Of a stretch of 64,000 nucleotides of DNA, positions 27,586 to 57,565 are shown piece after piece. The notes below the pieces were generated by a model. It ran no database searches and was not told the origin of the DNA. It saw only the letters and a program-made list of their open reading frames with translations. Within the stretch, counting starts at the first letter, position 1. Every line of letters starts with the position of its first letter. This DNA comes from Escherichia coli (GTDB lineage Bacteria; Pseudomonadota; Gammaproteobacteria; Enterobacterales; Enterobacteriaceae), in NCBI RefSeq assembly GCF_045037415.1, contig NZ_CP173440.1. One strand, 5' to 3'. A program made the position numbers and the translations under genes.

Positions 27586-27620
27586 GTTGTCCCTCTGGAT
27601 GTAAAAAATTTCAATATCAA

Positions 27621-27639
27621 TTGTTATGTTATAACGTAA
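27621..27639. promoter_or_regulatory. Zur-box-like operator
   Basis: TTGTTATGTTATAACGTAA, 17 bp upstream of the flavoprotein start codon. Confidence 0.55.
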
Positions 27640-27655
27640 TGCAAAGGGTAATTTT

Positions 27656-28786
27656 ATGAACCAACCACGCGAAGTCGTTATTGTCGGTGCGGGTCCGGCC
27701 GGGGTGGGTATGGCGGCGCTTCTTCGTCGTAGTGCCATACAGGATATCCTGGTCGTTGACAGTCACGAAGTAGGTGCCTCCTTTATGCGCTGGCCGGAAG
27801 AAACCCGTTTTATTACTCCTTCTTTTTTTTCCAATCCGTTTGGACAACCAGACCTGAACTCTGTGACCCCTGACAGTTCATTGGCGCTTTTCTGCGGTGA
27901 AGAACATCCTGGGGGGAAAACTTATGCCAGTTACCTTAAGGCCGTACTGGATGAGTATCAGATACCCGTCATGGCTCCCGCCAGGATTGCAAAGGTTGCG
28001 TTGCTCAGTTCCGGTAATTTTATACTGATAACAGAAGCAGGAGAGAAGCTGGAAACACGCTCTTTAATATGGGCTACAGGCGAATTCCAGTTCCCAGACC
28101 GGCAGATTTTTCCTGGAGCAGATATTTGTTGCCATTACGGTGATGTGACCAGCTGGAAGGATTTCAGGAAAGGTGAATACATTGTTATAGGCGGCTATGA
28201 AAGCGCGGTGGATGCCGCTGTAAACCTGCTGGAAAATGGCTCATCGGTAAAAATGTTAACCCGCTCAGCCCCTTGGTCAACTAACCACATCAGCGATCCC
28301 AGTCTATCGCTTTCCCCTTATACCCGTGAGCGTTTGAACAGAGTGATGAATCACCGTCTTTTCGAAATTTATGAAGATGCGGATGTCTGTGAAGTAATCA
28401 GAATGCCCGGCCCGGGAAGTTCGTACAAAGTCCATACCACAAACGGACGCGCCTGGGCTACTGACGAGGTGCCTGTGCTTGCTACCGGCTTCCAGTGTGG
28501 CGGAGGAGCAAGGCAACTGGCTGCTTTTTTTGAATGGAATGATGATGGCTATCCGGTCTTAACGGACGAAGACTGCTCAACCCTTTTTCCTGGTTTGTAC
28601 CTTGTCGGCCCTCATGTGCGGCATGCCGGTAATATTTATTGCTTTATCTATAAGTTCCGTCAGCGCTTTCCCGTCGTGGCAGAAAGTATCACGCGTCATC
28701 TGGGCCTGTCCTCTGAAGGAGTACGGGACTGGTGGGTTCTGCCTTCAGAGCCTGACTGCTGTGCCGATGAGGACTGTGCGTGCTGA
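27656..28786 (+). CDS. FAD/NAD(P)-binding flavoprotein (flavin-monooxygenase or thioredoxin-reductase-like) with Cys-rich C-terminus
   Basis: VVIVGAGPAGVG FAD-binding fold, second GG…AVDAA dinucleotide motif, LATGFQ motif, C-terminal CCADEDCAC. Confidence 0.6.
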   Translation: MNQPREVVIVGAGPAGVGMAALLRRSAIQDILVVDSHEVGASFMRWPEETRFITPSFFSNPFGQPDLNSVTPDSSLALFCGEEHPGGKTYASYLKAVLDEYQIPVMAPARIAKVALLSSGNFILITEAGEKLETRSLIWATGEFQFPDRQIFPGADICCHYGDVTSWKDFRKGEYIVIGGYESAVDAAVNLLENGSSVKMLTRSAPWSTNHISDPSLSLSPYTRERLNRVMNHRLFEIYEDADVCEVIRMPGPGSSYKVHTTNGRAWATDEVPVLATGFQCGGGARQLAAFFEWNDDGYPVLTDEDCSTLFPGLYLVGPHVRHAGNIYCFIYKFRQRFPVVAESITRHLGLSSEGVRDWWVLPSEPDCCADEDCAC

Positions 28787-30447
28787 GGTCCGTGTTTATG
28801 CAATCATTCGTTTTAATGGGATTAGAAAGTGCAGGAAAATCTACCCTGTTTAATATCCTGACGGAAAGTGCTGCCAGTGATGAGCGTAATTTCAGGGGAT
28901 CGACCGTTGTATGTCGGGAAGGTCTCATTAATGATGCAGGGATCTGCCTGGTTGATACGCCAGGCATACGTTTTCAGAGCGACAGTGAAACCACAAAACT
29001 CGCCCTTGATGCGCTAAATCAGCATGATGGCATTCTGGTGGTTCTGCGGGCCACGCACGCTCAGCAGGAGTGGCAAACGCTCTGTCACCTCATACCGCCA
29101 CAGGCAAAACACGTTGTTATACTCCTGACCTTTGCTGATAAGATCAGAAAGGGCCTTCTGGAAGTGACTGAATACCTGAGTGAAACATCAGGTGCGCCGG
29201 TACTGGCAGTCAATGCCCGGGAAGCTGGCAGCAATGTTCGCCAGGGAATAGTGCAGTTGCTGTTGCAGGATAAACCTGCACCCTCCGCTGTCTCTTTACC
29301 CCGTCAAAAGATACCGGTAATTAATCTGCTGGCTGAATTTCCTCAACAAACGATATTTGAACATCGTTGGTGTGGAAAAGTTGCTGCAATAGTATGCCTT
29401 TTCCTGCTGTTTGCCGTTCCGGTATGGGGGGCATGGCTGCTGTCAGATTTTATTCAGCCTGTCATTGACAGTGCGGTTATTCAGCCGCTTAAGAATATAA
29501 CGACGAGCTGGCCCGACGTTCTGAAGACACTATTTGTCGGCAATTACGGTCTTTTTAGTCTGGGACTTTATTCGTTTGTATGGGCATTTCCTGTGGTGGT
29601 ACTGATAGGGTTGTCTCTTTCGCTGACTGACGACAGTGGACTTAAGGAAAGAATTACAGCGACGCTGGATCCCTGGTTGAGAAAACTCGGCCTCAGCGGT
29701 CAGGACCTTATTCCTGTATTAAGCGGTTTCGGCTGTAATGTCGTGGCGGTTTTTCAGAGCCGTTCGTGTTCGCGATGCACCCGGCATGCTTGTATAAGTA
29801 TGATTAGCTTTGGGTCCGCTTGCAGCTATCAGACGGGGGCGACGCTTTCTCTTTTTAATGCCGCCCATCAACCATGGCTCTTTATCCCCTATCTCAGTCT
29901 GCTGTTTTTCACAGGCGCAATACATACGCGCCTCTGGAACGGGTCGTTGAAGCCTGGCCAAAACCAGCGTCTGACAGAGATCACCTGGCTACAATGGCCA
30001 CGCTGGCGAAATGTGACATGGATGCTGAAAAATATCCTCCGTCAGTTCATTACGCAAGCCATGCCGTTATTCCTGATTATCTGCATTGTTGCGGGGATGC
30101 TTGATTACGCAGGGATCACTCGCTGGCTGAGTGAAACGACGGCACCTTTACTTCATCTTTTTAAACTGCCAGCAGAACTGATGCCCGGGATCATTTTTTC
30201 ACTGCTAAGGAAAGATGGTTTGATGGTGCTCAATCAGGATGGCGGCAGCTTAATACAGTCTCTCAGCACATCTCAGTTACTGCTACTTGTCTGGCTCGCC
30301 TCTACGTTGATGGCCTGCCTTGTCACGGTATTTACCATCGCCCGGGAAATAAACTGGCGGTTTGCAGCAGCAGTGGCGGGAAAACAGGTATTAAGTTCTC
30401 TGGTGGTGGCTCTGGTGATATCCCAGTTATTTATTCATGAGGCATAA
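28780..30447 (+). CDS. FeoB-family transporter with a divergent G-domain
   Basis: G1 GLESAGKSTLFN and G3 DTPG; membrane domain with LSGFGCNVVAV gate-like motif; shorter than canonical FeoB. Confidence 0.6.
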   Translation: MLRSVFMQSFVLMGLESAGKSTLFNILTESAASDERNFRGSTVVCREGLINDAGICLVDTPGIRFQSDSETTKLALDALNQHDGILVVLRATHAQQEWQTLCHLIPPQAKHVVILLTFADKIRKGLLEVTEYLSETSGAPVLAVNAREAGSNVRQGIVQLLLQDKPAPSAVSLPRQKIPVINLLAEFPQQTIFEHRWCGKVAAIVCLFLLFAVPVWGAWLLSDFIQPVIDSAVIQPLKNITTSWPDVLKTLFVGNYGLFSLGLYSFVWAFPVVVLIGLSLSLTDDSGLKERITATLDPWLRKLGLSGQDLIPVLSGFGCNVVAVFQSRSCSRCTRHACISMISFGSACSYQTGATLSLFNAAHQPWLFIPYLSLLFFTGAIHTRLWNGSLKPGQNQRLTEITWLQWPRWRNVTWMLKNILRQFITQAMPLFLIICIVAGMLDYAGITRWLSETTAPLLHLFKLPAELMPGIIFSLLRKDGLMVLNQDGGSLIQSLSTSQLLLLVWLASTLMACLVTVFTIAREINWRFAAAVAGKQVLSSLVVALVISQLFIHEA

Positions 30448-30449
30448 GT

Positions 30450-30656
30450 ATGATCCCCAAGACTTACCAGCAATGGTACCGGTGCATCACAGAAGAATGT
30501 GGAATTCCCTTGACGCAGGCATTTATTGCATCCCGTCTGGCAGTCCTTGAGTCCCAAGATCATCAGGAAACCAGACGTTTTGTCTCGCTATATGGGCAAC
30601 AACATCTGAATAGTGTTGTACAGTGGTTCAAAAAAGCTGGGGAAGAATTGTTGTAA
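30450..30656 (+). CDS. small hypothetical protein, translationally coupled to the FeoB-like gene
   Basis: 68-aa ORF starting 3 nt after the FeoB-like stop. Confidence 0.35.
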   Translation: MIPKTYQQWYRCITEECGIPLTQAFIASRLAVLESQDHQETRRFVSLYGQQHLNSVVQWFKKAGEELL

Positions 30657-30681
30657 ATCTGCCCCCTTTTCGCTTTCATAC

Positions 30682-30710
30682 GAAGGCACCCGACAAATGC
30701 GGGTGCCTTC
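30682..30710. terminator. perfect 11-bp stem hairpin between convergent genes
   Basis: GAAGGCACCCG-acaaatg-CGGGTGCCTTC. A near-identical hairpin recurs at 61555-61585. Confidence 0.4.
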
Positions 30711-30713
30711 GAT

Positions 30714-31937
30714 TCATTCTTCGAACCAGGGCTCAACAGGATCGGAATAATGCCGCCACTTTTGAGGCCCTTCTGCCATTTCTGCATCCGTTAACAGGGC
30801 GGAATCCAGTCTGTTGCGCAGTTCTGATTCATTCATATCCATTCCAATAAAAACGAGTTCCTGACGGGCATCACCAATGCCATCTATCCAGTTAGACATG
30901 ATGAACTTCAGTGACTCAGCATCCTCTGGCCAACGTCCTTTCGGCACACTAGCCCACCACATGCCCCCCAGCCCCTGGCGCGCAATGCCACCTGCCTGCG
31001 ACCATGAACCTGCGAATTCCGGACGGCTGGCCAGCCAGAAGTAACCTTTTGATCTGACGACTCCATCCAGCTCATTTTCCATCACCTGCCAGAAACGGGT
31101 CGGATGAAAAGGCCGGCGGGCGCGAAAGACAAAGCTGGTGATCCCATATTCTTCTGTCTCCGGCGTATGTTCGCCCCGGAGTTCTTTAAGCCAGCCGGGT
31201 GCCTGAGCGGCCTGCTCGAAATCAAACAGCCCGGTATTAAGTATGTTGCCCAGCGGAACCTGTCCAAACTGTGAAACAACGATTCTGGCCCGTGGATTAA
31301 GCGAACGTAAAATCGCCATCAGTTTTTCTTTTTGCGCTTCACTGATAAGGTCAACTTTATTAAGGACCAGCACATCACAGAATTCAATCTGATCGATCAG
31401 CAAGTCAACAACGCTCCTTTCATCACCTTCACCTAACGATTCTCCGCGTGACTGAATGCTGTCTTCCGAACCGTAGTCTTTCAGAAAATTGTACGCATCC
31501 ACCACAGTGACCATGGTGTCAAGGCGGGCCACCGTCGAAAGGCTTTCACCGTCATCGCCCGCAAAGGTAAATGTTTCAGCAACAGGCAGAGGCTCAGATA
31601 TACCGGTGGACTCAATGACAAGCTGATCAAAACGCCCTTCTTTTGCCAGACGATTAACTTCGAGAAGAAGATCTTCGCGCAATGTGCAGCAAATGCAACC
31701 GTTGCTCATTTCTACCAGTTTTTCATCAGTCCGGGAGAGTTCTGCACCACCTTCCCTCACAAGGGCAGCATCAATATTCACCTCAGACATATCATTAACA
31801 ATGACAGCAACACGACGGCCTTCCCGGTTGTTCAGAATATGGTTAAGCAGTGTCGTTTTCCCTGCTCCCAAAAATCCCGAAAGTACGGTAACCGGCAGGC
31901 GTTTATCGCCATGAAAATTTGCACTGACTTCGGACAT
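30714..31937 (-). CDS. COG0523 GTPase with canonical CxCC motif
   Basis: P-loop [11 protein letters not shown] and GCICCTL metal motif, followed by a CobW_C-like C-terminal domain. Confidence 0.8.
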
Positions 31938-31973
31938 TACCTTACATCTCCTCAGATATTCGTTGTGTTCGGA

Positions 31974-32381
31974 TTAACCAGGATCGTTGAGCACGGTTAG
32001 CTCATCGCCTTTAATGGCGTTGTAAAAACAACTCCGCCGACCTGTGTGGCAGGCTCCACCTTTTTGATCCACTAGCAGTAGCACCGCATCTCCGTCACAA
32101 TCCAGACGGATATCATGTACTTGCTGAACGCAGCCGGAGGTCTCACCTTTTCGCCAAAGGCATGATCGGGATCGCGACCAGTAACAGGCTCTGCCAGTCA
32201 ATAAGGTTTCATCAAGAGCCTGTTGATTCATCCAGGCAAGCATCAACACCTCTCCAGTGTCATATTGCTGTGCAATCGCAGCGATCAAACCATGAGAATC
32301 CCAGGGTATTGACGGCAGGATATCCTCAAGCTGAAACACTGCTCCTGCATGGGCTTTTTCCAGTAACAGAAACATTGGCAC
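31974..32381 (-). CDS. hisI: phosphoribosyl-AMP cyclohydrolase paralog (HisI-like)
   Basis: 135 aa with HisI-like core (…WSRSRS…[28 protein letters not shown]); Cys/His ligand positions appear retained. Confidence 0.65.
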
Positions 32382-32393
32382 CCCACCTTTTTG

Positions 32394-32411
32394 ATGTTAC
32401 GTTATAACATA
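32394..32411. promoter_or_regulatory. Zur-box-like operator
   Basis: ATGTTACGTTATAACATA, 13 bp upstream of the hisI-like start, in the divergent region with a Fur-family regulator gene. Confidence 0.55.
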
Positions 32412-32519
32412 TCAAACATAATTGCCAGTTATCACGATTTCACAGGCACTGTACTTCTTGGGTAACATCTGACCGGAAAAAGAAACAAAGCAAATGTGAT
32501 AGAGGCAGCAGGAGGCAAG

Positions 32520-33020
32520 ATGAATAACAAACTACATTCTGAATTGATTAAGAAAGCTATGTTCCCGGATCTAGGCTGTTCAGAATTTAGGGAACTGACT
32601 GCCCGTAAGGCGATGCGAATTACTCCGATGCGGATGATGGTGTATCACTTCATCAGGTGTGCTGAAGACAAAGGTATCAGTGCATACCAAATCCTTGACC
32701 AGTTAAAATCATATAACCCAAATGCAAAACCAACTACTGTTTATCGTACTCTGGATTATCTACAACAGGCTGGAGTCATTGTAAAAATAGAAAGCTGTAG
32801 CAAGTTTGTAAAAAAGAATAGCTTTCCCCATGAAGGATTAACACTTTTTATGATTTGTTCAAACTGCGGTACAATCATTCAGCATACAGACAGCAAAATA
32901 CAATATTACGTTGAGGATAAATCACATGAATATGGGTATATTATGCAAAGAAAGGACATAGAAATCAGTATAATTTGTCCCGGTTGTCAGGCTAATGAAA
33001 AAATGGCGCAATCTGGGTGA
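32520..33020 (+). CDS. second Fur-family regulator (low-GC, divergent from the hisI-COG0523 operon)
   Basis: Winged-helix region and CSNCG…CPGC structural-zinc-type motifs. Start set at MNNKLH. Confidence 0.6.
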   Translation: MNNKLHSELIKKAMFPDLGCSEFRELTARKAMRITPMRMMVYHFIRCAEDKGISAYQILDQLKSYNPNAKPTTVYRTLDYLQQAGVIVKIESCSKFVKKNSFPHEGLTLFMICSNCGTIIQHTDSKIQYYVEDKSHEYGYIMQRKDIEISIICPGCQANEKMAQSG

Positions 33021-33395
33021 ATTGTGCTCAATAAGCATACGATTAGTAACTTCCCATATTATATGTGAAACAGAAAAAATATTATTACGGTCGATAAAAT
33101 TAAGAATAATATAAATTAGCACTCCCACAAATATTGATTGAAATAATGCTGAATTATTTTCAATAAATAATACAAATAATGCAATTTGAAAAATACCTAC
33201 CTATCATGTTTAGCAAAGCATGACTATTTAGGATCATAAAAACAAAAAAGGAAATTTATAATTTATTTATTTTAACCGTTTTATTTGCACTCCATGTAAA
33301 TGCATGCTTAAATTCCCATGCATTTCCTAAACAATATTACTAATGACCTTTATATACAATAATACAGAAATCCTAAATAACTGATCCTAATACCG

Positions 33396-34390
33396 CTACA
33401 GTTTAGCCAACCCATGTTTTCCACCGGGGAATGGGCTGACGGTATTCATAAAGTGACGAACCTTTTTCAACAGTTTCCACATTGAGTGGCACTGATGATT
33501 TCGGGTTATTGTCTCGTGAAGCGCCTGCCACAACCGTTCGACATGATTGACCCGCGGCGAGTAAACCGGCTGATAAATTACCCTGAACTTCGGGTTTGCT
33601 TTCAGCCAACGCAACGTTTCACGGCTTTTGTGGATGATGTGGTTATCGACAATGAGCGTAATCGTTTTTGCCCGCCGGTATGTCGCCTTCAGATGTTTTA
33701 AGTCTGATAAATAAGGAAGAACCTTTACTGTTTCCACTAACGTAGCTGGCTTTTCCTGTATCGCTGTGCAGCGCACCGGCAAGATAGTACTTTTCATTCT
33801 GGCCCAGCGTGACTACGCGCTTTTGCTGCCCGCGCAGATGCCAGTCAGCACCAATTTTGGGATTGAGGTGAATATCCACTTCATCTTCGTAAAATACGGG
33901 GTTTTCCGCACTGCATTCGCCAGTGCTTCATGGATAGCGACCATTTTTTCTTCTTTGTGTGGGGCACGGATACGCAGTGTCGGCGCTGCTCTCCGCCATA
34001 CCAGTCCGGCAGCAGGTAACCATCGCCGGATGGTTGAAGCATGTAGCGGACAACCGATAACATCACGGACTTTTATCGCCAGCAGTTCGGTGCTCCAGCG
34101 GGAACGCTGATAACTGAAATCGCCGGGAGAATGCTTAACAAGCTCAAGCAGCAATGCGCAAATATGTTCGAACGGCCAGCGCCTCCCACGTCCTGACGGC
34201 AATGATTTCAGGCCTTCAGTACCAGACAGCGTGAACCAGTTAATCTAGCGACCAATCGATGAGCGGGCACAGCAGAGCGTTCTGGCAACATGACTGACGG
34301 TGTCACCATGATGCAGCATCAGCATGGCGGTGAGCCGCCGGGCGAGGTTTTTGTCCTTTGTTTTATTGATATTTTTATCCATCAGGCGTC
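33396..34390 (-). pseudogene. IS630-family transposase, broken into three or more frames
   Basis: ORFs 33396..33797 (DDE C-terminus, …YQPVYSPRVNHVERLW…) and 33813..34202 (N-terminal part), plus an HTH piece near 34250-34390. Confidence 0.55.
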
Positions 34391-34478
34391 ACTGGCTCTT
34401 GCCCGCATATCAGCTGCATTATAGTACGGCATCAGGTAATTCCTTGATGGTTGTTATCCGCGATATCAGACCTGACGT

Positions 34479-35460
34479 CTATTTATTGGGCTGAATTTCC
34501 CGGATGCTGCTTAAATCACGGTGACGTGAACTCCAGACGCCGCTTCCGACCGCGGCACCGGTGGATTTTCTGAAGCGCAGGCCGCACTCACTGACCCACT
34601 GGGAACTGGTTTCCCGCAGCCTGACTAAACGGGGTTGGTAGCATTCAGTAACGGTCCCGGTGTGAGTCATCTTCTTCTGCTTTTTCGTTTCATGGACATG
34701 GGTGACCTTATCTGACGAACCATTCACCGCCCGGTCACGGTATTCAGTAGGGATCTCCATAGACAGGCGCAGAGGCAGGGCCCTGCCCTGCCCCGGGACG
34801 GGTAACAGACTGTCCGCCGTGGCTTTCAGCCAGCCATACAGCTTATGACCATTACCCGGAATGCCATCAAGCGTCAGTTTACGCGCGGTGAAGCTCCCGT
34901 CCTGCCTTCGGACCTTCCGCAGGAAGGTACCCAGAGGCTTACCAGACTCAACCGGCTCCGCCACAATCTAGTCATACCCTGGAAACTGATCGAGCATCAG
35001 GTCGATATACTCCCAGTCGAGGACGACAATGACGTGGCCATGAATGTCAGGGCCGTCATTCCACTGTATGGCAATGACATAAGGGAACAGCATGTCGTCG
35101 TGAACTCAGAGATACTGAACTAGGCTCTAGCTGGCCAGTTCACAACTGCCGGCCGGAAATGGCTTCAGCCAGTCACGCCAGAGGGAAGGTACCGGCTCAC
35201 CGGACCGTTCTCCGGCGGCCAGCTCCAGCGCCCGACGGAAGGCCTTCACACGGGCCCAGGTTTCCGCATTCATTTCTTTGCCTTCCCATCAGCACGCGCT
35301 AGGATCAGCAGGCTGAACGCGTCACGAATAACAACTCACTAGATACCATAGCCACCTGACTGCACAGGTAAATCAATGAATTCTGGCGGCCCGGCCAGTA
35401 CCTTTGTCAGATCCAGCGGTAGATGTATGACATTGGTCATTCACCGGCTAGGTTCACAAA
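34479..35460 (-). pseudogene. degraded gene of unknown family with several in-frame TAG stops
   Basis: Consecutive minus-strand coding-like segments are interrupted by stops, several in CTAG context. Confidence 0.3.
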
Positions 35461-35611
35461 GGTGATCTGGTGTGGGAAAGCGGAGCGTTTTACCAGAAAA
35501 TCAAATATAGTTGACAGGCAGGATATTACATATGGTCAACTCATGTGATCTGTATCTTATTATACGAAAAATGGAACTCATCTTAATATGTTGATATAAA
35601 ATCACTTTATA

Positions 35612-36175
35612 TTGAAAACCTCATATTATGGCACACTGCCTGCGGTAGATAGTGCTAACGAAAAGCAGCCACTGATGATTGGCTCCCATATTGACACCGT
35701 TGTAAACGCCGGCGCTTTCGATGGTTGTTACGGTGTCCTGTCCGGCCTGGCTGTCGTCAGGGCTTTCAGAAAAGCCGGGATCAAACCTTCCCGCCCGATT
35801 ACTGTCGGCGCATTCACAAACGAAGAGGGTATCCGTTATCAACCCGATATGATGGGATCGCTCGTCTATGCAGGGGGGATCTCGCTGAAGAAAATCCTGG
35901 ACACTGTCGGCACTGATGGCACACGTCTGGGTGATGAGCTGCAGCGTATTGGCTATGCGGGAAACCTGGAGCCCGGCTCGATCGTCCCTCATGAATACAT
36001 TGAACTGCACATCGAACAGGGACCTGTTCTTGAAGCCGAAGGGATCCAGATCGGTGCTGTCGAAAATCTTCAGGGAATTTCCTGGCAGGAAATCACCATC
36101 AAAGGCACGGCAAACCATGCAGGCACCACGCCGACACGGCTACCCGTTCTTACGATCCGGCAGTCTAGGAAATGC
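35612..36175 (+). pseudogene. fragment of an M20-family amidohydrolase (allantoate/N-carbamoyl-amino-acid amidohydrolase-like)
   Basis: Internal region only (…GSHIDTVVNAGAFDGCYGV…GTANHAGTTP…); N- and C-termini are missing. Confidence 0.5.
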
Positions 36176-36533
36176 TTGAAAAACGGATGCGTGTTATCTG
36201 TAATTCTGTTTGCGCAATGCACGAAGCAGAATGTGAATTCATTTACACACATGAGTTTTCACCTACAGTCGATCATCCGCGGGAAACTGCATATGCAATT
36301 GACGCAGCGGTTCGCGTATTCGGCGAAAAAAATGTGGATTCCACGGTGACGTGTTCATACTCAAATCTCCTGCAATATGGGAGATTTGAGTATGGTTGTA
36401 CCTTGTGAGCGAACAGCGGGAATTCGCAAATGTTTCACATCTGATCAAGGCATTACTTAAAGGATGCTGTGGTAGCCAACGGGGAGCAGGTCAAAGCAAT
36501 TACAAATTGGTTTGAATTGCAACATCATGCAAA

Positions 36534-36553
36534 TAAATGTTATGTTATCACAT
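36534..36553. promoter_or_regulatory. Zur-box-like operator (one mismatch to the window consensus)
   Basis: AAATGTTATGTTATCACATT, about 25 bp upstream of the probable ATPase start. Confidence 0.45.
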
Positions 36554-36577
36554 TACTTAAGTGGCATATACAGTGAC

Positions 36578-37387
36578 ATGAACAACAATCTTCCTTATCC
36601 AATACCTGTGCTTGATGTTAAAAGCGTCAGCATTTCTACGGGCCATTCTGCTCTGGTTAGCGATGTCAGCTTTCGGCTCCAACAAGGCGAGCGGGTCTGT
36701 ATTATCGGCTCATCAGGGTCAGGTAAGTCTCTGACGGCAAAAGCCATTATAGGTACATTGTCTGCCGGGCTGTTATTACAAGGAAGCATTCGTATAAACG
36801 GTGCGGATGTCGTTGGCCTTCATCCCACCCGGCGCCCTCAGCATGCGCTGGTATCCGCCATCTTTCAGGACTCTTCCACCGCGCTGAACCCGCTGATGCC
36901 GGTGGGGCGACAGCTTGCTCTGGCGTTGAAAACAGGTGATAACGCGATGCTGGGCTCTTTGCTGGATGCGCTACAGCTCAGCGATATCCCTCAATTGCTC
37001 TCCCGCTACCCGGCAGAGCTTTCCGGTGGGCAGCGTCAGCGGATTTGCATCGCGCTGGCGTTGCTGGGGAATAATCGCCTGCTGGTTGCTGATGAACCGA
37101 CGACGGCACTGGATGTGATTAGCCAGCAGCAGGTTTTGCAGATATTAGTTCAGGGTTCCACGATGAGAGCTCCGCCTGCGTTGCTCTTCATCACACATGA
37201 TATTGCCGTTGCCACACAGTTGTGCCAGCGAGGTATCGTGGTGGAAAAAGGCAGGATTGTGGAGTCAGGCACAATGGACCAGCTCCTGAACGAGCCGGAG
37301 CATCCTTACACCCGCAAATTGGTACGGGCCGCGCGAGCCGCTGAACAGACGTTGTTAACACACACCCGTGAGGTGCTCGCCGGATGA
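36578..37387 (+). CDS. ABC transporter ATP-binding protein (Nik/Dpp/Opp-type, D-like)
   Basis: Walker A GSSGSGKS, signature LSGGQRQR, Walker B LLVADEPT. Confidence 0.8.
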   Translation: MNNNLPYPIPVLDVKSVSISTGHSALVSDVSFRLQQGERVCIIGSSGSGKSLTAKAIIGTLSAGLLLQGSIRINGADVVGLHPTRRPQHALVSAIFQDSSTALNPLMPVGRQLALALKTGDNAMLGSLLDALQLSDIPQLLSRYPAELSGGQRQRICIALALLGNNRLLVADEPTTALDVISQQQVLQILVQGSTMRAPPALLFITHDIAVATQLCQRGIVVEKGRIVESGTMDQLLNEPEHPYTRKLVRAARAAEQTLLTHTREVLAG

Positions 37388-38217
37388 GTATTCCCCTGCA
37401 GATGGCATCCGACTCCTTCATTCAGGTCGACAGGATTTCCCGCTACCGGAGTCACCCCGGACTCCCTTGGCAGAAGACCCTGCCAGTGAATGCCATTCTT
37501 AAAGATTTTTCGCTCACACTGCGTCAGCATGAGCGTGTTGGCCTGTTAGGATGTTCGGGCTGTGGAAAATCGACGTTACTGAAAGCTATCTTGGCCCTCG
37601 ACCCGGTAGATGACGGTGAGGTGTATTGTGATGGAAAGGTGGTCAGGCCCGGCTCTGCCCGAATATTGCGCTGGTATCGCCGCAGGGTTCAGTACCTTCC
37701 TCAGGAACCCGCCAGTACGTTGCCGCCGTCAATGCGTGTCAGAGAGATTCTCAACGAGCCGCTAAGACATTTAGGCTGCAACCGTGATGCGTCACCTAAT
37801 CTTGCCGCCGCGCTTGAACAGGTCGAACTCAGCGCAAAAGTTCTCGATCAGCGTGCAGGCTCGCTTTCAGGGGGGCAGGCTCAGCGCGTTGCGCTGGCAA
37901 GAGCGCTGATCATACAGCCCGATTTTTTGCTGGCCGATGAGCCGGTCAGCGGGCTGGATCTTCCCCTGCGTGAGCAAATCAAATTGCTACTTTTGCGTAT
38001 AGCAGAAGAAAACCGCATGGGGCTGCTGATTGTCTCTCATGACATTTCTATGCTGGCAGGGTTGTGCGACAGAACGCTGGTCATGGTGGCTGGAAAAATC
38101 ATTGAAGATCGCCCGACGTTTGAAATGTTGCATTTACCTCATCATCCGCATACGCGTCAGCTTCTGGACGCGGTACCGGCTCTTGTAACTCATGCCCCGT
38201 CGCTGGCACGTGGCTGA
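37384..38217 (+). CDS. ABC transporter ATP-binding protein (F-like)
   Basis: GCSGCGKST, LSGGQAQR, LLADEP; ATGA overlap with the upstream gene. Confidence 0.8.
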   Translation: MSIPLQMASDSFIQVDRISRYRSHPGLPWQKTLPVNAILKDFSLTLRQHERVGLLGCSGCGKSTLLKAILALDPVDDGEVYCDGKVVRPGSARILRWYRRRVQYLPQEPASTLPPSMRVREILNEPLRHLGCNRDASPNLAAALEQVELSAKVLDQRAGSLSGGQAQRVALARALIIQPDFLLADEPVSGLDLPLREQIKLLLLRIAEENRMGLLIVSHDISMLAGLCDRTLVMVAGKIIEDRPTFEMLHLPHHPHTRQLLDAVPALVTHAPSLARG

Positions 38218-38243
38218 ATACACTTTTAACGAATAATCTCATT

Positions 38244-39488
38244 ATGACTGAATTGATTTCAGGGAAGAAAGCGAACACCTCCCCTTCATTGCTGCTTGTC
38301 AGCCAGTTTATTTTTAATACCGGTTTTTATGCGGTAGTGCCTTTTCTCGCTATTTTTCTGCGCGATGACATGCTGTTGTCCGGTGCCGCGATTGGCCTGG
38401 TGCTCGGTCTCAGGACCTTCTCGCAGCAGGGTATGTTTCTGGTTGGAGGGGCACTGACTGACAGGTTTGGCGGACGTGCCATCATTCTGTGCGGCTGCGT
38501 GGTCCGAATCAGTGGCTACCTGCTGCTCGCCATCAGCGCCTCGTTATGGGGCGTTATTCTGGGAGCCTGCCTGACAGGGATTGGCGGTGCGCTCTTCTCG
38601 CCTGCAATCGAGTCGCTGATGGCTCAGGCGGGGACGCAAAGTGAAAGGGAAGGCAAGCGCAGCCGTTCAGAATGGTTCGCGTTGTTCTCTGTTTGTGGTG
38701 AGCTGGGTTCAGTCATCGGTCCTTTGCTGGGAGCATTGCTGACAGGGTACAGCTTTCAGAGTGTGGCCCTTGGCGGGGCAGGCGTCTTCTTGTTTGCGCT
38801 GATTATGCTCTATTTCATGCTACCGACAGGCACCAGCCATCATGGCACGCTTAAAATTTCCCCTTGGTGGACGGCATTTCACCAGCGCCGCTTTGTTGCC
38901 TTTATCGTTGCTTACAGCGCGTATTTATTCAGCTATAACCAGCTCTATCTGGCGTTACCCGTTGAACTACGCCGCTCCGGGGGAAGTGAGGCCGAGCTCG
39001 GCCCGCTGTTTATGCTGGCCTCAGTCATGATCATTTTCCTGCAATTGCCTCTGGCACGGTTTGCCCGAAAACGCGGCGCATCACAGATTTTGCCTGTGGG
39101 ATTTTTGCTGCTGGCACTGTCATTCTTTAGCGTCGCTCTGTTCGCCGGTACCACAGCGCCAGACACTCTGTGGCGGCTGCTTCCCGCGGTTTCACTAGTC
39201 ACGCTGCTGACGCTTGGCCAGATGCTTATTGTGCCTGTGGGCATGGACATGATCCCTGTTTTTGCCCGGGATAAAAATCTTGGGGCGCACTACGGAGCAC
39301 TCTCCTCCATGGGCGGCGCCACCGTGCTGGCCGGCAATTTTGCCCTCGGCGGGCTGCTGGATCGCGCACTCATCCCTTCTTCGCAGGCTTTTGTGCCATG
39401 GCTACTTATGGGCTGCATTCCGTTATGCAGCGCGGTTGCCATGCTGTTTATTTTACGATCGTTTAAAACGACCTCTGGAAATCAATAA
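38244..39488 (+). CDS. MFS transporter embedded in the ABC operon
   Basis: About 12 predicted TM helices; MFS-like signature GGALTDRFGGR. Confidence 0.65.
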   Translation: MTELISGKKANTSPSLLLVSQFIFNTGFYAVVPFLAIFLRDDMLLSGAAIGLVLGLRTFSQQGMFLVGGALTDRFGGRAIILCGCVVRISGYLLLAISASLWGVILGACLTGIGGALFSPAIESLMAQAGTQSEREGKRSRSEWFALFSVCGELGSVIGPLLGALLTGYSFQSVALGGAGVFLFALIMLYFMLPTGTSHHGTLKISPWWTAFHQRRFVAFIVAYSAYLFSYNQLYLALPVELRRSGGSEAELGPLFMLASVMIIFLQLPLARFARKRGASQILPVGFLLLALSFFSVALFAGTTAPDTLWRLLPAVSLVTLLTLGQMLIVPVGMDMIPVFARDKNLGAHYGALSSMGGATVLAGNFALGGLLDRALIPSSQAFVPWLLMGCIPLCSAVAMLFILRSFKTTSGNQ

Positions 39489-39498
39489 GGACAGATAA

Positions 39499-41025
39499 AT
39501 GAATACGGGTAAATCATTATGGCCTGTTTATGGGCTCTTGTCAGCCACCTTATTACTGACTGGCTGCTTTAATGAACCGCAGGACGAATCGGTCAGCGCC
39601 AGCGAGGGCAGAATTAAAGTGGCGCACCTTCTTCCACCGCGTTCCGGCCTGACGCCGCTCAGTGATGATGCATTTAAATTATCGCGCTGGAGCACGGCTG
39701 AAACCCTGGTCGTACTCAACAGCGCCAGTGATGCACAGCCTGCGCTGGCAACCAGCTGGGAGCAAATCAATGACACAACCTGGCGTTTTGAATTGCGCCC
39801 GAACGTCAAGTTTCATGACAATACCGATCTAACCGCGCAGTCGGTGGTTAACGCGCTGAGCGTTGCCGCTAGCGCCAAACCAAAGCCCCGTATTCTGGAT
39901 GGCATAACGCTCACAGCCAAAGTAGACGGCGATAATGCCGTACTGATCACGACTGAAAAACGCGATCCTCTTCTGCCTCAGCGTCTTTCCAGCCCTCAGC
40001 TGGCCATTTTGTCGCTGAATGCTTACAAAGAAAATGGCGTGGTGAACCCAGTTAATGCAGGAACCGGGCCATTCATTCTGCGCAGCGTGAATGGCACCAG
40101 CAGTGCCGCGCTCGATCGCTTTGATGGCTACTGGGGCGAGAAGGCGAAAGCTAGCGGTATTGACGCAAGCTTTGTTCCGGACGGGGCCGCGCGCGCAGCC
40201 GCATTACGTACTGGCACGGCGGATATCATTGAGGCAATTCCTGTGTCTCAGGCCCCGCTTCTGGATCAATCACTGGTTCATGAAGTCCCGATGCCGAGAA
40301 CCAATACGCTTTATCTCAATACGGCGCAGGGCGTGATGAAAGATCCAGCTATGCGAGCCGCAGTCCGTGACGTGATTAATCGTCAGCAGATTGTTGATAA
40401 TGTCTATGAGAAACGTGCCGACGTCGCGCAGGGGCTTCTGGGGCCAGCCTTGCCATGGGCCGCACCACTGCGCAAACCGGTGACCAACCCCGTTGCAGCG
40501 GGAAAACCAGACGGGGCCACAATCACTCTGGCAACGTTCAGCGATCGTGCGGAATTGCCTGAAGTCGCGGTCTATCTTGCACAGCAGCTCATTGCCGCCG
40601 GGTTTACCGTGAAACAAGTGGTCCGCGAGTATTCGCAGATTGAAGCTGATGCGCTGGCCGGAAAGTTTGATGCCTTTATTCTGTCGCGTGCAACCGTGCT
40701 GGATTCCGGTGACCCGGTTGCCTACATGTACAGCGATTTCGCCTGCGAAGGGTCGTTCAATATATCCCAGCTGTGCCGCCCGGAAATTGATGCAGCGCTG
40801 AAAAAAGCCCGTGAAACGCCAGCGGGTGAAACCCGACGTCAGGCCATTATGGACGCTGAAAACATGATCCTTGCCAGTGATGCTGCGATCCCAATACTAC
40901 ATGAGCGCGTCATTCAGGGAGAAAGTGCGGTAGTGAAAAATGCGCTCCGTGACCCTCGCGAGCGCACGCTCATCGACAGCCAGACCCAATTAGTCGCTGG
41001 CGAACATACTACTGCTGCGCAGTAA
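39499..41025 (+). CDS. family-5 (NikA/OppA/CntA-like) substrate-binding lipoprotein
   Basis: Lipoprotein signal (LLLTGC); size and composition of family-5 solute-binding proteins. Confidence 0.7.
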   Translation: MNTGKSLWPVYGLLSATLLLTGCFNEPQDESVSASEGRIKVAHLLPPRSGLTPLSDDAFKLSRWSTAETLVVLNSASDAQPALATSWEQINDTTWRFELRPNVKFHDNTDLTAQSVVNALSVAASAKPKPRILDGITLTAKVDGDNAVLITTEKRDPLLPQRLSSPQLAILSLNAYKENGVVNPVNAGTGPFILRSVNGTSSAALDRFDGYWGEKAKASGIDASFVPDGAARAAALRTGTADIIEAIPVSQAPLLDQSLVHEVPMPRTNTLYLNTAQGVMKDPAMRAAVRDVINRQQIVDNVYEKRADVAQGLLGPALPWAAPLRKPVTNPVAAGKPDGATITLATFSDRAELPEVAVYLAQQLIAAGFTVKQVVREYSQIEADALAGKFDAFILSRATVLDSGDPVAYMYSDFACEGSFNISQLCRPEIDAALKKARETPAGETRRQAIMDAENMILASDAAIPILHERVIQGESAVVKNALRDPRERTLIDSQTQLVAGEHTTAAQ

Positions 41026-41043
41026 AACAGGGGTTATTGATCA

Positions 41044-42819
41044 ATGAGCGAATCGCTGTACTGCCGGACCTGCGCCAGGATCCATCGGGCAGGTAACCTG
41101 CCAAAAGGCTTAGTGGCAACGTTGCTGTCGCGGATAATTACGCTGACCGGTATTGTCGTGCTGATCGGGATGCTGCCTTGGGTATCGGGCCAGGATCCCG
41201 CCATGGCGCTGCTGAGAGCGCGTTCTGCCGAACAGGAAGCAACCCCGGAAGCATTAGCAGCGATTCGCCAGTCGCTGGGGTTCGATCAGGGCCCTGTGCA
41301 ACTCCTGCTGCACTGGCTCAGCGGCCTCTTGCAGGGGGATGCAGGTAACTCTTGGATATCAGGGCGCCCGGTGCTGCCTGACATGATCCAGGCAGCCCAG
41401 GTGTCACTGACGCTGATGCTGATGTCCGCCGTGGTGGCACTGCTGCTGGCGGCGATGATTTGCCTGCCGACATTCCGACGAGGCCTGCAGGGGCGGTCGT
41501 TTCGTTCGACGGGCTTTTTCGCGTCAGTATTCACCGCATTACCTGAATTTCTTCTGGCGTCATTCTTACTGGTCGTTGGGGCCGTCTGGCTGGAGTGGTT
41601 TCCTCCTTACGGCTGGAACGGCCTGCACTATGCGGTGCTGCCCGCGCTGGCAATGGGGATCCCGGCAGGTGGCTATCTGGGGCGGATATTCTCGGATGCT
41701 TTAGCGGCAACCTTTAGTGAAAACTGGATAATCACCTGGACCGTCTCCGGGATATCGCGTTGGCACATTACCTGCGCGGTACTTAAGCGAACGCTCTCCA
41801 CCGTTATGCCGTTAATTGGCCTGGTTTTGGTGTCATTGACGGGCAGTGCAGTGGCCGTGGAAAAGGTCTTCGCCATTCCGGGGCTCGGCAGGGCAACGCT
41901 CGGTGCCGTAGTTGCACAGGATCTTCCGGCGCTGCAAATGGGCGTGCTCTTCCTGCTCATCATTGCATTTATGTTCGGAATGCTGTGTGCGGGGATCAGA
42001 TACCTCATTCTGGGGCGGGCGTTACGCACGTCCTCTCTGCCGGTCACCAATGAACCTGACGGAAAAAGCGGGAAATTGTCGCTGTTGCTTCCGTTCGCCT
42101 GTGGCGTTGCGTTGGTCGTGCTTCTGCTTATTGGTCTGCCCCGTGATCCTTACTCGTCTGAGTTTATGCGACTGGCTCATCCTTCCTTTTCGCTGCCCTT
42201 TGGGGCCGATGCCATGGGGCGTGATTTGCTGGCCAGAGTGGCCTACGGCACAGTGCATACCTGCATGCTGGCGCTGATGGTGTCGCTTATTTGTCTGCTA
42301 CTGGGGCTGGTTATTGGTCTTTTCCCCAGGGTATTTGTGGGACCGACAGAGATGGCAAATGCGCTGCCTCCGGTGATTGCGGGCTTACTGGTGGTTTCCA
42401 TCAGTGGCCCCGGCAGTTTAGGTGCGGCCATTGCGATTGCAGCAGTAGGCTGGGCGCCTCTTGCCACACATACCGCGGCGCTGGCGACAGAAATTCGCGC
42501 CAGACCTTATATCAACATGCTTCCTGTTCTGGGGGTTGGCTGGCTACGTCAGAATCTGTTTTACATTTTTCCGGCACTAATTGGCCCTCTCTTTCGTCAT
42601 GCTATGCTGCGCTTACCGGGGATCGCCCTAGCTTTGGCTTCACTGGGTTTTCTCGGGCTGGGCGCATCACCGCCGGAGCCGGAATGGGGAAGGGTACTTG
42701 CGGAAGGAATGCCTTATCTGGAGCGCGCCTATTGGGTCGTTCTGGCACCTGCAGTCGCCCTTGCCGTTTTGTCGGTGATGGGCGTGAGTCTGGCCGGTCT
42801 GACGGGTCAAAAAAAGTAA
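41044..42819 (+). CDS. fused ABC permease (NikB/NikC-like double transmembrane domain)
   Basis: 591 aa with two permease-like halves. Confidence 0.65.
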   Translation: MSESLYCRTCARIHRAGNLPKGLVATLLSRIITLTGIVVLIGMLPWVSGQDPAMALLRARSAEQEATPEALAAIRQSLGFDQGPVQLLLHWLSGLLQGDAGNSWISGRPVLPDMIQAAQVSLTLMLMSAVVALLLAAMICLPTFRRGLQGRSFRSTGFFASVFTALPEFLLASFLLVVGAVWLEWFPPYGWNGLHYAVLPALAMGIPAGGYLGRIFSDALAATFSENWIITWTVSGISRWHITCAVLKRTLSTVMPLIGLVLVSLTGSAVAVEKVFAIPGLGRATLGAVVAQDLPALQMGVLFLLIIAFMFGMLCAGIRYLILGRALRTSSLPVTNEPDGKSGKLSLLLPFACGVALVVLLLIGLPRDPYSSEFMRLAHPSFSLPFGADAMGRDLLARVAYGTVHTCMLALMVSLICLLLGLVIGLFPRVFVGPTEMANALPPVIAGLLVVSISGPGSLGAAIAIAAVGWAPLATHTAALATEIRARPYINMLPVLGVGWLRQNLFYIFPALIGPLFRHAMLRLPGIALALASLGFLGLGASPPEPEWGRVLAEGMPYLERAYWVVLAPAVALAVLSVMGVSLAGLTGQKK

Positions 42820-43004
42820 AAGCGTTCCATACGTTGCTATCACTATGACTGCAATGTCGAACACCTTTAAACACGTGATTCTGTTACCAGGATTAAGTCG
42901 AGATTATTTTGAAATAACTCTGCACACTTTTTCACCGAAATTATGCTGGTGCCCATCGTCGGGCGAAGTTAGACTGAAATGTTGAGTTAAACAAGGGGGC
43001 AAAA

Positions 43005-43235
43005 ATGAAAGTGTTAAGTATTGTCGGGGCAACGCTGTTGGTCACGTCATTCCATGCTGCCGCATTTGTTTCTGTATCGCCGGTGCCTGCGGGGCAAAAT
43101 GCGAACGTCAGTCCTGCTGCAAACAACGGACACGCTATTCCTTCTGAAGCGGTCAATGCTGACATAACAAAGATCATTCCGATCGCTGGCTGTCACTGCG
43201 CTTTCTGCAACTCGTTGCGCGCCGCTAACCTTTGA
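43005..43235 (+). CDS. small secreted protein with C-terminal CHCAFC motif
   Basis: AAGGGGG ribosome-binding site; signal peptide MKVLSIVGATLLVTSFHAAAF; His/Cys cluster near the C-terminus. Confidence 0.4.
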   Translation: MKVLSIVGATLLVTSFHAAAFVSVSPVPAGQNANVSPAANNGHAIPSEAVNADITKIIPIAGCHCAFCNSLRAANL

Positions 43236-43819
43236 CCCCTTCTTCAGGCCTGGGTTTATCAACATTCAGGCCCTGAGTCCGCTCCTGACGTGCCGTAGGC
43301 CATGAGTATGATGGCCTGCTCCTGCCTTTCACCTGTACCCCACCTTACCGCCCAGTCGTTTATTTCACCCTTTACGGGCTGACTTGCCGCGAAAAAGCTT
43401 CCCGTACATTCCATTAACACATCCCACGCAGCGTAGATTCAAAGAGAACTCTGTAGGAGATGTTAACAATGCCATATAAGAAAGCCTCTGTATTTGAAGA
43501 TCCCCGTTTACCTGTCCCCGCTCTCTGATTTCACCCAGTCGGCGGATAAAGACTGCACGCGCAAGGGCATTGCGGGCCTCACCTTTATTCAACCCTGCCT
43601 GTACGCGTCGACGCAGGGAAGGCTCCCGGAACCAGTAATGGCCGTGAAGCGACTGTGCAATGCGCTGTTTGGCAGAACGGGCAGCCAGTGGCTGATTGTG
43701 GAAGTTTTTGGGGAGAAAGGGCGACAGCACCGCAGTACGGACAGTAACCCGGAGGCCGTTGAAAAGATGGTCAGGCATGTGATAAACCCAGTAACACCTG
43801 ATAATCTGGAGGATACAGG

Positions 43820-44299
43820 ATGAAAAAATATAAAGTTGTCACTGCAGGACTTCTCCTGGCAGGCCTTATTGCTACCGGTATCACCTGGGCAGCAGGCCAG
43901 TCCAACGGAGAGAAGAATGCGCAATGGCGAAAACCCCTGAACGAGAGCATCACGCTTCGGTTCGGTGAAAAAGCCTATAGCGTGGATTTGTATGATAATC
44001 CCACGACTCACGACCTGCTAAAAAAGCTGCCCCTTAACGTTCAGGCCACGGATTACCCGGGGTATGACGAGAAAGTGTTGCGCTTAGCAACACCATTATC
44101 GATGGAAAATGCGCCGCGGGGTGATGAACCAGAAATTCCTGAAGTGGGCTACTATGCTCCCGGGCAGTGGATTGCTGTTTACTTCGGTCCTATTGGTTAC
44201 TGGTCTGGTAAGGTGCCGCTTGGCCGTATTCATGCTTCAGTCGATGAAATCAGTGCCATTCCGGAGAATACGCCAGTCACCATTGAGAAAGCGAAATGA
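43820..44299 (+). CDS. secreted hypothetical protein (possibly cyclophilin-like fold)
   Basis: Signal peptide; stop overlaps the start of the downstream reductase gene. Fold assignment is tentative. Confidence 0.35.
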
Positions 44300-45135
44300 C
44301 CACTGACAGCATACTGCTTAACGACGGCTATTATATGCCCCGGCCAGGTTGTGGCCTCTGGCTGATTGACAACAGGGACGTTGACTCTCTGATCCGACAG
44401 GCATTGAAAGCAGGCTTCCGGCACTTTGACACGGCCCAGGCATATTTTAATGAAGATGGGGTAGGCCGTGCGTTACGGTATACCGAAGTACCGCGTGAGC
44501 AGTTGTTTATTACTTCTAAAATTCGCGGCAGGGATATGGGCTATGCACGTACGCTTGTCTCCTTTAACGAAACACTGGAGCGTCTGGGCGTCGAATACCT
44601 TGAGCTTTTTCTCATTCACTGGCCGATACCCGCAAAAAATTTGTATGTGGAAACCTGGGAAGCATCAATCGAGCTGGAGGCCAGCGGTCTGATTCGTTCC
44701 ATTGGTGTGTCCAATTTCACCTGCCAGCATATAGAGCGGCTTATAGAGGATACTGGTGTGGTGCCGGCTGTGAATCAGCTTGAACTGCATCCGCATTTTC
44801 AACAGTGTGATGTCCGTGATTATCATCATGAAGCCGGAATAGCCATTCAGAGTTACAGCCCTTTTGGTAGTAATGGTGCAGCAGTTTTACGCAATGCGGT
44901 GGTAATGGTTTTGGCAAGACGACATGACCATTCACCGGCTCAGATTGTACTTCGCTGGCATCTTCAACAAGGACTCACGCCTCTGCCCAGAACAACCAAT
45001 GGTGCACGATTTAGTGAAAACGTTGATGTCTGGGATTTTGAACTTTCAGAGGAAGAAATGAAACTTCTGGCGAGCCTCAACACACGAACCGGTAATACTC
45101 AACCCCTGCCCGATGCTATGAATATGTCGTTCTGA
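44296..45135 (+). CDS. aldo/keto reductase
   Basis: AKR hallmarks (…FDTAQAY…, LIHWP). Confidence 0.8.
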   Translation: MTTDSILLNDGYYMPRPGCGLWLIDNRDVDSLIRQALKAGFRHFDTAQAYFNEDGVGRALRYTEVPREQLFITSKIRGRDMGYARTLVSFNETLERLGVEYLELFLIHWPIPAKNLYVETWEASIELEASGLIRSIGVSNFTCQHIERLIEDTGVVPAVNQLELHPHFQQCDVRDYHHEAGIAIQSYSPFGSNGAAVLRNAVVMVLARRHDHSPAQIVLRWHLQQGLTPLPRTTNGARFSENVDVWDFELSEEEMKLLASLNTRTGNTQPLPDAMNMSF

Positions 45136-57561: not shown

Positions 57562-57565
57562 AAAT

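Follow-up and report, generated by a model that had tools for sequence, protein, structure and literature searches.

A five-gene operon behind a Zur-type box

The stretch of DNA analysed here comprises 64,000 nucleotides of contig NZ_CP173440.1 from the Escherichia coli assembly GCF_045037415.1 and is referred to, at its full length, as the window. At 36534-42819 it carries an operon encoding an ATP-binding cassette (ABC) importer and a transporter of the major facilitator superfamily (MFS), which most likely serves to take up a metal complex during zinc starvation. A sequence-only reading had described this locus as a five-gene Nik/Opp-type operon behind a Zur-like box, and all of these elements were found (Table 1). 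The five open reading frames (ORFs) are intact and follow the order ATPase-ATPase-MFS-binding protein-fused permease; the first has its RefSeq start at ATG 36578, 22 nt after the end of the box, and the mechanically called ORF begins at TTG 36512. The two ATPase genes overlap by 4 nt (ATGA), ATPase 2 being translationally coupled to ATPase 1, and the intergenic gaps are 10-26 nt; the genes therefore form one operon. No clear terminator was found after 42819 in a consensus scan, and an Rfam scan of 33000-44000 identified no riboswitch or other RNA family.

Table 1. Positions in the window of the operon genes, their predicted operator and the Zur-like regulator gene of the neighbouring island
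Feature	Position	Strand	Basis
Zur-type operator TAAATGTTATGTTATCACATTAC	36534-36556		Core palindrome 36538-36552
ABC ATPase 1, NikD/CntD-like, 269 aa	36578-37387	+	NCBIfam, motifs in translation
ABC ATPase 2, NikE-like, 277 aa	37384-38217	+	NCBIfam
MFS transporter, EitD family, DHA-type H+ antiporter, probable exporter, 414 aa	38244-39488	+	Motifs, homology
Substrate-binding lipoprotein, family-5 (cluster C), 508 aa	39499-41025	+	Pfam SBP_bac_5, lipobox
Fused permease, 591 aa	41044-42819	+	NCBIfam; NikB/CntB-like 27-314, NikC-like 367-585
Zur-like Fur-family regulator, island-encoded	32520-33020	+	NCBIfam Zur 84.5 bits (cut-off 167)

Classification of the components with NCBIfam models and their curated cut-offs showed that the models closest to each ABC component are those of transporters for nickel, cobalt or staphylopine, with scores that are always below the cut-offs. 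The best matches of ATPase 1, the translation of which contains a Walker A motif (GSSGSGKS), a signature motif (LSGGQRQR) and a Walker B motif (LLVADEP), were nikD (185 bits), CntD and CntF (180 bits each), while ATPase 2 scored 187.6 and 175.5 bits against NikE models. In the permease, the N-terminal half matched Opp1B (156 bits), Opp2B (143 bits) and NikB (133 bits) and the C-terminal half matched Opp2C (131 bits) and NikC (94 bits); this combination of a NikB-type and a NikC-type half therefore identifies the protein as a NikB-NikC fusion. The component scores favour Nik/Cnt models over Opp/Dpp models and thus agree, among the likenesses noted earlier, with those to metallophore and nickel importers rather than with that to peptide importers.

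Conservation of the Zur-type box

The core of the box, TGTTATGTTATCACA, has one mismatch to TGTTAT-N3-ATAACA. The complete box, TAAATGTTATGTTATCACATTAC, has 4 mismatches to the 23-mer gammaproteobacterial consensus, and no site with 3 or fewer mismatches to the full 23-mer was found anywhere in the window. A scan of the window with the 15-mer core, allowing up to 2 mismatches, yielded 14 strand-hits, as compared to 1.78 expected and a maximum of 6 in 100 shuffles. The good copies of the box in the window all precede zinc-related operons. Specifically, the box at 24332 precedes dksA2-folE2-carbonic anhydrase, the box at 27622 precedes a FAD-oxidoreductase/FeoB-like pair, the boxes at 32395-32414 are located in a promoter region common to the Zur-like regulator and the divergent hisI-zigA, and the box at 57545, which is perfect, precedes a COG0523 fragment and a FecCD-type ABC operon. 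Reading of the region by eye suggests a promoter TTGCAA (36517)-18-TATGTT (36541), the -10 region of which is probably overlapped by the predicted operator.

To follow the site across the family described below, 300 nt upstream of the first gene were scored in each of 84 loci with the Zur box of the respective phylum. Of the loci with usable sequence in this region, nearly all have a box of the expected type at -16 to -80. Gammaproteobacteria such as Pectobacterium, Rahnella, Serratia, Dickeya and Vibrio carry (A/T)TGTTATGTTAT(A/T/C)ACAT at -16 to -60, Halomonas carries ACGTTATATCATAACGA, mostly at -40 (range -38 to -61), and three alphaproteobacterial loci have related palindromes upstream. 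In Streptomyces and Lentzea, the box is TGAAAA(C/T)GATTGTCA or TGCAAATGATTGTCA at -60 to -78, and these sites fit the published S. coelicolor Zur motif, tGaNNatSatNNtCa, which was derived from chromatin immunoprecipitation (PMC5472717). In three 21-kb loci that were scanned whole, the upstream Zur box was the only strong site.

The sequence of the site thus follows the phylum of the host while its position is kept, which is strong evidence of Zur control. Given the excess of boxes in the window, their placement before zinc operons and their conservation across genera and phyla, the box reflects more than chance. Zinc control of the operon, which had been proposed from the one-mismatch box, is thus well supported by the sequence comparisons, as the same box precedes classical Zur genes in the window and phylum-appropriate boxes are found in approximately 30 genera; Zur itself would be expected to bind the box. 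The Zur-like protein encoded in the island, annotated as a Fur-family regulator, could be an additional repressor of the operon.

Distribution of the operon across genera and phyla

A scan of approximately 100,000 species genomes, with one genome per species, identified relatives of the binding protein in 470 species. Eighty of these relatives, together with three loci fetched earlier and the window itself, make up the 84 loci examined, which represent 31 genera of Gammaproteobacteria, Alphaproteobacteria and Actinobacteria and in which the core operon is conserved. Enterobacterales with the operon include Pectobacterium, Brenneria, Rahnella, Dickeya, Serratia, Erwinia, Pantoea and Tatumella, and the binding protein is 63-83% identical among Enterobacterales, Vibrio, Halomonas/Vreelandella, Rhizobium, Pseudoroseomonas, Streptomyces, Lentzea and Arthrobacter. 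The other components are less conserved, with identities of 35-66% for the ATPases and 46-84% for the permease; between Klebsiella and Streptomyces (L008-L090 loci), the binding proteins are 63-69% identical and the ATPases only 34-37%. A cross-phylum alignment of 43 binding proteins contains 188 near-invariant positions, including the lipobox L-x-G-C-F, in which members from Gram-negative and Gram-positive hosts alike have retained Phe at +2. The conservation of the binding protein and of this Phe in both Gram types points to extensive horizontal transfer and to an unusually strong constraint.

The permease fusion was found in 84 of 84 loci (median length 592 aa). In an all-against-all clustering of the ORFs of these loci, the MFS transporter was the only recurrent non-ABC neighbour, with occurrences in 28 loci and 10 genera; the other neighbour clusters represented antisense ORF artefacts, lineage-specific synteny (PrkA/YeaH) or unrelated ABC genes.

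The binding protein as a separate subfamily

The binding protein carries a lipobox (LLTGC) and the Pfam domain SBP_bac_5. Its best NCBIfam match was S. aureus Opp5A/NikA, with 193.1 bits (cut-off 600), followed at a distance by TIGR02294 nikA with 94.1 bits (cut-off 393), DppA with 62.5 bits (cut-off 1005), CntA (NF047575) with 61.6 bits (cut-off 800) and OppA with 26.7 bits (cut-off 947). Firm clustering with the peptide-binding OppA or DppA, which would have spoken against a metal importer, was thus not observed, the scores being far lower than that for S. aureus NikA. In a profile alignment (hhalign), the protein is 30% identical to E. coli NikA, and the ligand residues of NikA are replaced (R137 by Q167, W398 by V400 and Y402 by G404) or, in the case of the His416 loop, deleted. 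An identity as NikA, CntA, OppA or DppA was rejected, because the protein scores below every curated cut-off and the NikA ligand residues are absent. The likeness to staphylopine and nickel importers that had been noted from the sequence therefore holds for the transporter class; it does not extend to the binding protein, which is not a member of the CntA or NikA family.

An AlphaFold2 model built from 79 sequences had a predicted local distance difference test score (pLDDT) of 93.7 and a predicted template modelling score (pTM) of 0.89 and showed a cluster C fold; an earlier model built from 11 close sequences (pLDDT 57.8) was unusable. The closest structures in the PDB, all with 25% identity or less, were two uncharacterised proteins, 3T66 from B. 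halodurans and 5U4O from B. anthracis, followed by S. aureus NikA (3RQT, 4XKR), GsiB/YliB and Brucella NikA. The Ni-binding proteins among these nearest structures, like the model scores, point to a transporter of the metal or metal-chelate class. Since no curated cut-off is reached and the solved structures are all distant, the protein founds, as judged from its sequence, a subfamily of its own within family-5. The signature of this subfamily (D56-D57, R131, R162, R350, R397, D402, D405, S412-D413-F/Y414, C416...C426 and H468) persists in relatives down to approximately 30% identity and is gone in generic family-5 proteins. The many invariant arginines suggest that the ligand may bear carboxylates. 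A parallel may be S. aureus NikA, in which Ni-(His)2 is held via Arg and aromatic residues, with the metal itself untouched (bioRxiv 10.1101/2022.10.03.510666).

The MFS transporter and its relationship to EitD

The embedded MFS transporter, which the sequence-only reading took to be an exporter, had its best NCBIfam match with MdtH (134.9 bits, below the cut-off). Motif A (GGALTDRFGGR) and motif C (G-x-x-x-G-P-x-x-G-G, in transmembrane segment 5), which is present as GSVIGPLLGALL at residue 155, are kept in 10 genera. Motif C marks antiporters among MFS transporters. The presence of both motifs makes a role as an exporter likely, which fits the earlier description. That description needs one correction, as the protein is a homologue of EitD. 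It is 65.6-66.7% identical, over 96-97% of its length, to the product of the fourth gene of eitABCD cassettes, which occur on E. coli ColV-type plasmids and in Enterobacter, Serratia and Raoultella, and whose EitA (690 and 696 bits, cut-off 640) and EitC (530 and 519 bits, cut-off 485) score above the respective cut-offs. In a neighbour-joining tree, calculated with no bootstrap, the EitD clade is nested among the MFS proteins of enterobacterial operons, and EitD is the closest among the named relatives compared. A single MFS family thus accompanies chelate-type ABC importers of two distinct classes, Opp-type and FecCD-type, and it is these same two classes that are found with opine zincophore clusters (PMC7438024).

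In the Klebsiella plasmid, Pectobacterium, Samsonia, Brenneria, Rahnella and Arthrobacter, the MFS gene separates the genes for ATPase 2 and the binding protein. In one Enterobacter, it is found upstream of the operon and outside the Zur box; it is close to the operon in several actinobacterial relatives and embedded in one 41%-identical relative. Further analysis of the eitABCD cassettes (L093, L094, L095 at 3030-3200, and L096) revealed a common promoter, TTGACA-17-TATAAA, and after it the sequence AATAATGAGTTTCATTTGCAT, a possible Fur box. No Zur box was seen in these Eit promoters; a different, AT-rich site resembling a Fur box is conserved instead. The four-gene eit cassette of Raoultella is apparently inserted within an opp-like operon, and that of Serratia is located beside a phage-type integrase island.

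Chelator biosynthesis genes

The absence of metallophore biosynthesis genes from the window, as noted earlier, was confirmed by annotation and by a query with nicotianamine synthase (NAS), and it extends to the 84 loci. No NAS or opine dehydrogenase is annotated in the matching plasmid record, a tblastn search with NAS gave no match in the window or the 84 loci, and no biosynthesis gene recurs among the neighbours of these loci in the clustering. The absence of cntM is by annotation only, as no sequence search was made for this gene. NAS was also not found in approximately 15 further metagenome relatives with enough flanking sequence; the metagenome scan used generic family-5 peptide patterns, and only these approximately 15 of 80 loci were true relatives. 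Among the plasmids of PLSDB, NAS is absent from all those of Klebsiella and E. coli, and the only plasmid matches are in an archaeon.

The one positive case is L098, a 41%-identical relative in a high-GC actinobacterial assembly with the exact order ATPase-ATPase-MFS-binding protein-fused permease. Divergently upstream of this operon (L098 909-2325) are genes for a GNAT protein and a full-length NAS (Pfam NAS, E=8e-70), and a site resembling the boxes of the Streptomyces operons is found 18 nt before the GNAT gene. As a single case, this is a lead towards a nicotianamine-type ligand rather than proof; it is also the one piece of direct support for the earlier suggestion that the operon may import a chelate made elsewhere. 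Homologues of the GNAT protein are encoded close to family operons in Lentzea and Kineococcus (L081 7011-21220; L079 3297-3764); the one in Lentzea lies inside a second Nik-like ABC operon, beside a heavy-metal P-type ATPase and with a ZigA-like GTPase upstream.

Comparison with known systems

Like the S. aureus staphylopine system CntABCDF-CntE (Opp1), the operon combines an Opp/Nik-class importer, a lipoprotein, two ATPases and an MFS transporter, and its permease and ATPase halves score approximately equally against Cnt and Nik models. Cnt is Zur-controlled and supplies zinc in starvation, and the operon described here likewise has a Zur box. Unlike in Cnt, however, cntK, cntL and cntM were not found (by annotation and the NAS query), the permease is one fused polypeptide, the MFS gene occupies the middle position in the operon and encodes an EitD-family protein, and the importer family spans three phyla. 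With NikABCDE of E. coli and NikA/Opp2 of S. aureus, the operon shares the domain families and the short NikD/NikE-type ATPases; it differs from NikABCDE in having a Zur box in place of nikR, a fused permease and an MFS transporter. NikR, urease and hydrogenase genes are not annotated in the matching record and do not recur in the 84 loci.

EitABCD resembles the operon as a compact, mobile cassette of importer and MFS transporter that carries no biosynthesis genes and is found on virulence plasmids; unlike the operon, it uses a Peripla_BP_2 binding protein and a FecCD-type permease rather than family-5/Nik components. EitABCD itself is a putative metal-chelate system the function of which has not been demonstrated (PMC3251573). 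A Zur-controlled importer paired with an exporter is also represented by P. aeruginosa PA2911-2914 and PA4063-4066, which import and export pyochelin-cobalt and for which the biosynthesis genes are located elsewhere (PMC11481552). The transporter classes of this pair (for import a TonB receptor and a FecCD-type ABC system, for export MacB) are unlike those of the operon, and its chelator is known, whereas that of the operon is hypothetical. ZniCBA, a core chromosomal cluster A-I system, was considered for both ABC systems of the window and was rejected; published work on zinc uptake in Klebsiella (ZnuCBA, ZniCBA) makes no mention of the operon.

Plasmid context and the surrounding zinc island

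Region 36400-42900 is 100% identical to 18 plasmids from E. coli transconjugants or clinical isolates and at least 99% identical to 499 PLSDB plasmids, 479 of which are from Klebsiella, and rmpA and rmpD are annotated downstream of the operon in the matching plasmid record. These near-identical Klebsiella plasmids and the downstream rmpA/rmpD identify the window as part of a K. pneumoniae virulence plasmid of the pLVPK/pK2044 type. An identical binding protein is also encoded on Klebsiella chromosomes of 5.2-5.5 Mb, with the same flanks and, in one case, an integrase nearby. These chromosomal copies probably correspond to KpZM, a Zn/Mn module beside ICEKp (Lam et al., PMC6202445).

An island of zinc-sparing paralogues, with the operon at its edge, has at least four more copies of the box. 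The island (16400-33020) contains hemB and pyrC (frameshifted), an M14 carboxypeptidase, ThrRS fragments, DUF1460, carbonic anhydrase, folE2, dksA2, cysS, zigA, hisI, two COG0523 GTPases and two Fur-family regulators, one of them Zur-like, and resembles the PA5532-5541 cluster of P. aeruginosa. One Zur-boxed operon of the island (27656-30447) encodes a FAD/NAD(P) oxidoreductase, weakly matching YpdA, and a FeoB-like membrane protein, a pair that is unusual for a zinc regulon. A second Zur-boxed transporter at 57545-60809 consists of a COG0523 fragment, an ATPase (58000-58827), a Peripla_BP_2 protein (58846-59805) and a FecCD-type permease (59775-60809); its best matches are 'F420-0 ABC' models, with a weak match to EitA, and in class it equals PA2912-2914 of P. 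aeruginosa, which is Zur-regulated.

The operon is directly preceded on its upstream side by a truncated pseudogene of an M20/M25/M40 metallo-hydrolase (35612-36349), which lies beside an IS630 remnant; in L097, an intact M20 peptidase gene is likewise close to a relative of the operon with 46% identity, which may be a coincidence. Downstream, a Tn3 fragment is followed by a gene pair for a cyclophilin-like-fold protein and a DkgA-like aldo/keto reductase (43820-45135), which is also kept in the chromosomal copies (L001-L006). Elsewhere on the plasmid (54689-56220), a type I-E Cas6/CasE gene and a DEAD/DEAH helicase fragment are found, with no other cas gene annotated nearby.

Proposed function and alternative explanations

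We consider it probable, with moderate confidence, that the operon encodes a Zur-repressed importer of chelated zinc that belongs to the Nik/Cnt class and is accompanied by MFS-mediated export or recycling of the ligand. When zinc is plentiful, the palindrome over the promoter would be occupied by the chromosomal Zur, by the Zur-like protein whose gene lies 3.5 kb upstream or by the two together, and transcription would be blocked; when zinc is scarce, the five genes would be transcribed as a single unit. The lipid-anchored binding protein would then capture its ligand in the periplasm, most likely Zn(II) on a small, widely available chelator of the aminocarboxylate or amino-acid type, and pass it to the fused NikBC-like permease, with uptake powered by the NikD/NikE-like ATPases. 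The EitD-type MFS transporter, as a proton antiporter, would return the chelator or the emptied ligand to the outside, through either secretion or recycling. A zinc chelate is our best guess for the substrate. That the ligand is specific and conserved is suggested by the binding protein being more conserved than the ATPases and having invariant Arg, Asp and His residues; a functional link of the MFS transporter to import is suggested by its being recurrent and embedded, by its retention of motif C and by the same family closing eitABCD.

Several points weigh against this interpretation. At the box, no sigma-70 promoter was detected in the consensus scan. The absence of the NikA ligand residues precludes deriving the binding mode from known structures, and the absence of any biosynthesis gene accompanying the operon in the 84 loci and the approximately 15 further relatives leaves the chelator hypothetical. 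Two thirds of the loci do not have the MFS gene, so that import as such cannot depend on it. The cargo of a Zur-regulated importer can also be cobalt instead of zinc (PMC11481552). Finally, a literature search on the family, by protein accessions and for Zur-regulated Opp/Nik-type systems, found no description, with a coverage that was partial, such that a prior description is possible.

A more specific, and tentative, possibility is 'zincophore piracy', in which the binding protein recognises zinc bound to nicotianamine or to a similar, ubiquitous aminocarboxylate that the bacterium does not synthesise and that is supplied by plants, diet or neighbouring microbes, and the MFS transporter expels the emptied ligand. 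Alternatively, and we regard this as unlikely, bare Zn(II) could be bound directly by Asp, His and Glu residues (D56/D57, H468/E469) and no chelator would be involved, the MFS transporter being an accessory whose role is unrelated or that of a safety valve. The lack of biosynthesis genes near the operon and of the MFS gene in two thirds of the loci would fit such a mechanism, as would the extreme cross-phylum conservation, which is compatible with a universal ligand such as the ion itself. In addition, NikZ-type family-5 proteins bind chelator-free Ni(II) through a C-terminal His-His prong, and the invariant H468-E469-R470 is comparably distant from the C-terminus. However, the invariant R48, R63, R131, R162, R350, R397 and R470 look like carboxylate-binding residues, as in S. 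aureus NikA, NikA and NikZ, and the MFS transporter recurs in two different chelate-type importer cassettes; to our knowledge, no family-5 protein binds zinc directly.

Import of cobalt or nickel, either free or chelated, to replace zinc in enzymes during zinc starvation appears rather improbable, even though the components most closely resemble nickel/cobalt transporters and cobalt/nickel transport was the role initially ascribed to S. aureus Cnt. The import of pyochelin-cobalt by the Zur-regulated PA2911-2914 of P. aeruginosa, where cobalt lowers the demand for zinc (PMC11481552), provides a precedent. Neither in the window nor in the related loci, however, is the operon linked to genes for NikR, urease, hydrogenase or cobalamin, and the conserved regulator site is that of Zur in every phylum, which makes zinc the simplest cargo. 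It is very unlikely that the substrate is a non-metal nutrient, such as a peptide, amino acid or cofactor precursor, that offsets the failure of zinc enzymes in starvation. Family-5 proteins do bind peptides, opines, glutathione and sugars, the surrounding island spares rather than acquires zinc, and the truncated M20 peptidase gene is directly upstream. Against this, peptide-binding models score far below nickel models, the ATPases belong to the short Nik type, the MFS transporter is shared with the Eit metal-chelate cassette and one relative adjoins a nicotianamine synthase. The idea that the box is a non-functional operator and that the operon is otherwise regulated or constitutive can draw on the 4 mismatches to the 23-mer consensus and on the failure to detect a consensus promoter, but is hardly credible for a site that is kept at the same position across approximately 30 genera, becomes actinobacterial in type in Streptomyces and Lentzea and also precedes the classical Zur targets of the window.

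Implications

As predicted from sequence, the new element is a Zur-controlled metal importer of the Nik/Cnt class that has an exporter and does not have a chelator pathway of its own. The family is apparently a conserved member of the Zur regulon in Proteobacteria and Actinobacteria, with a binding-protein subfamily for which no structure has been solved, and the EitD link ties the operon to eitABCD, a widely used and functionally unexplained plasmid marker of avian pathogenic E. coli (APEC). If the binding protein recognises zinc-nicotianamine or a similar chelate made by others, this would explain the enrichment of the operon in plant-associated Enterobacterales, Streptomyces and Rhizobium, the nicotianamine synthase of one relative and the presence of the operon in the zinc-island modules of hypervirulent Klebsiella, and it would suggest a parallel role for the long-unexplained eitABCD cassette. 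Should the operon represent a third, mobile route of zinc acquisition, it would bear on how hypervirulent strains resist zinc withholding of the calprotectin type.

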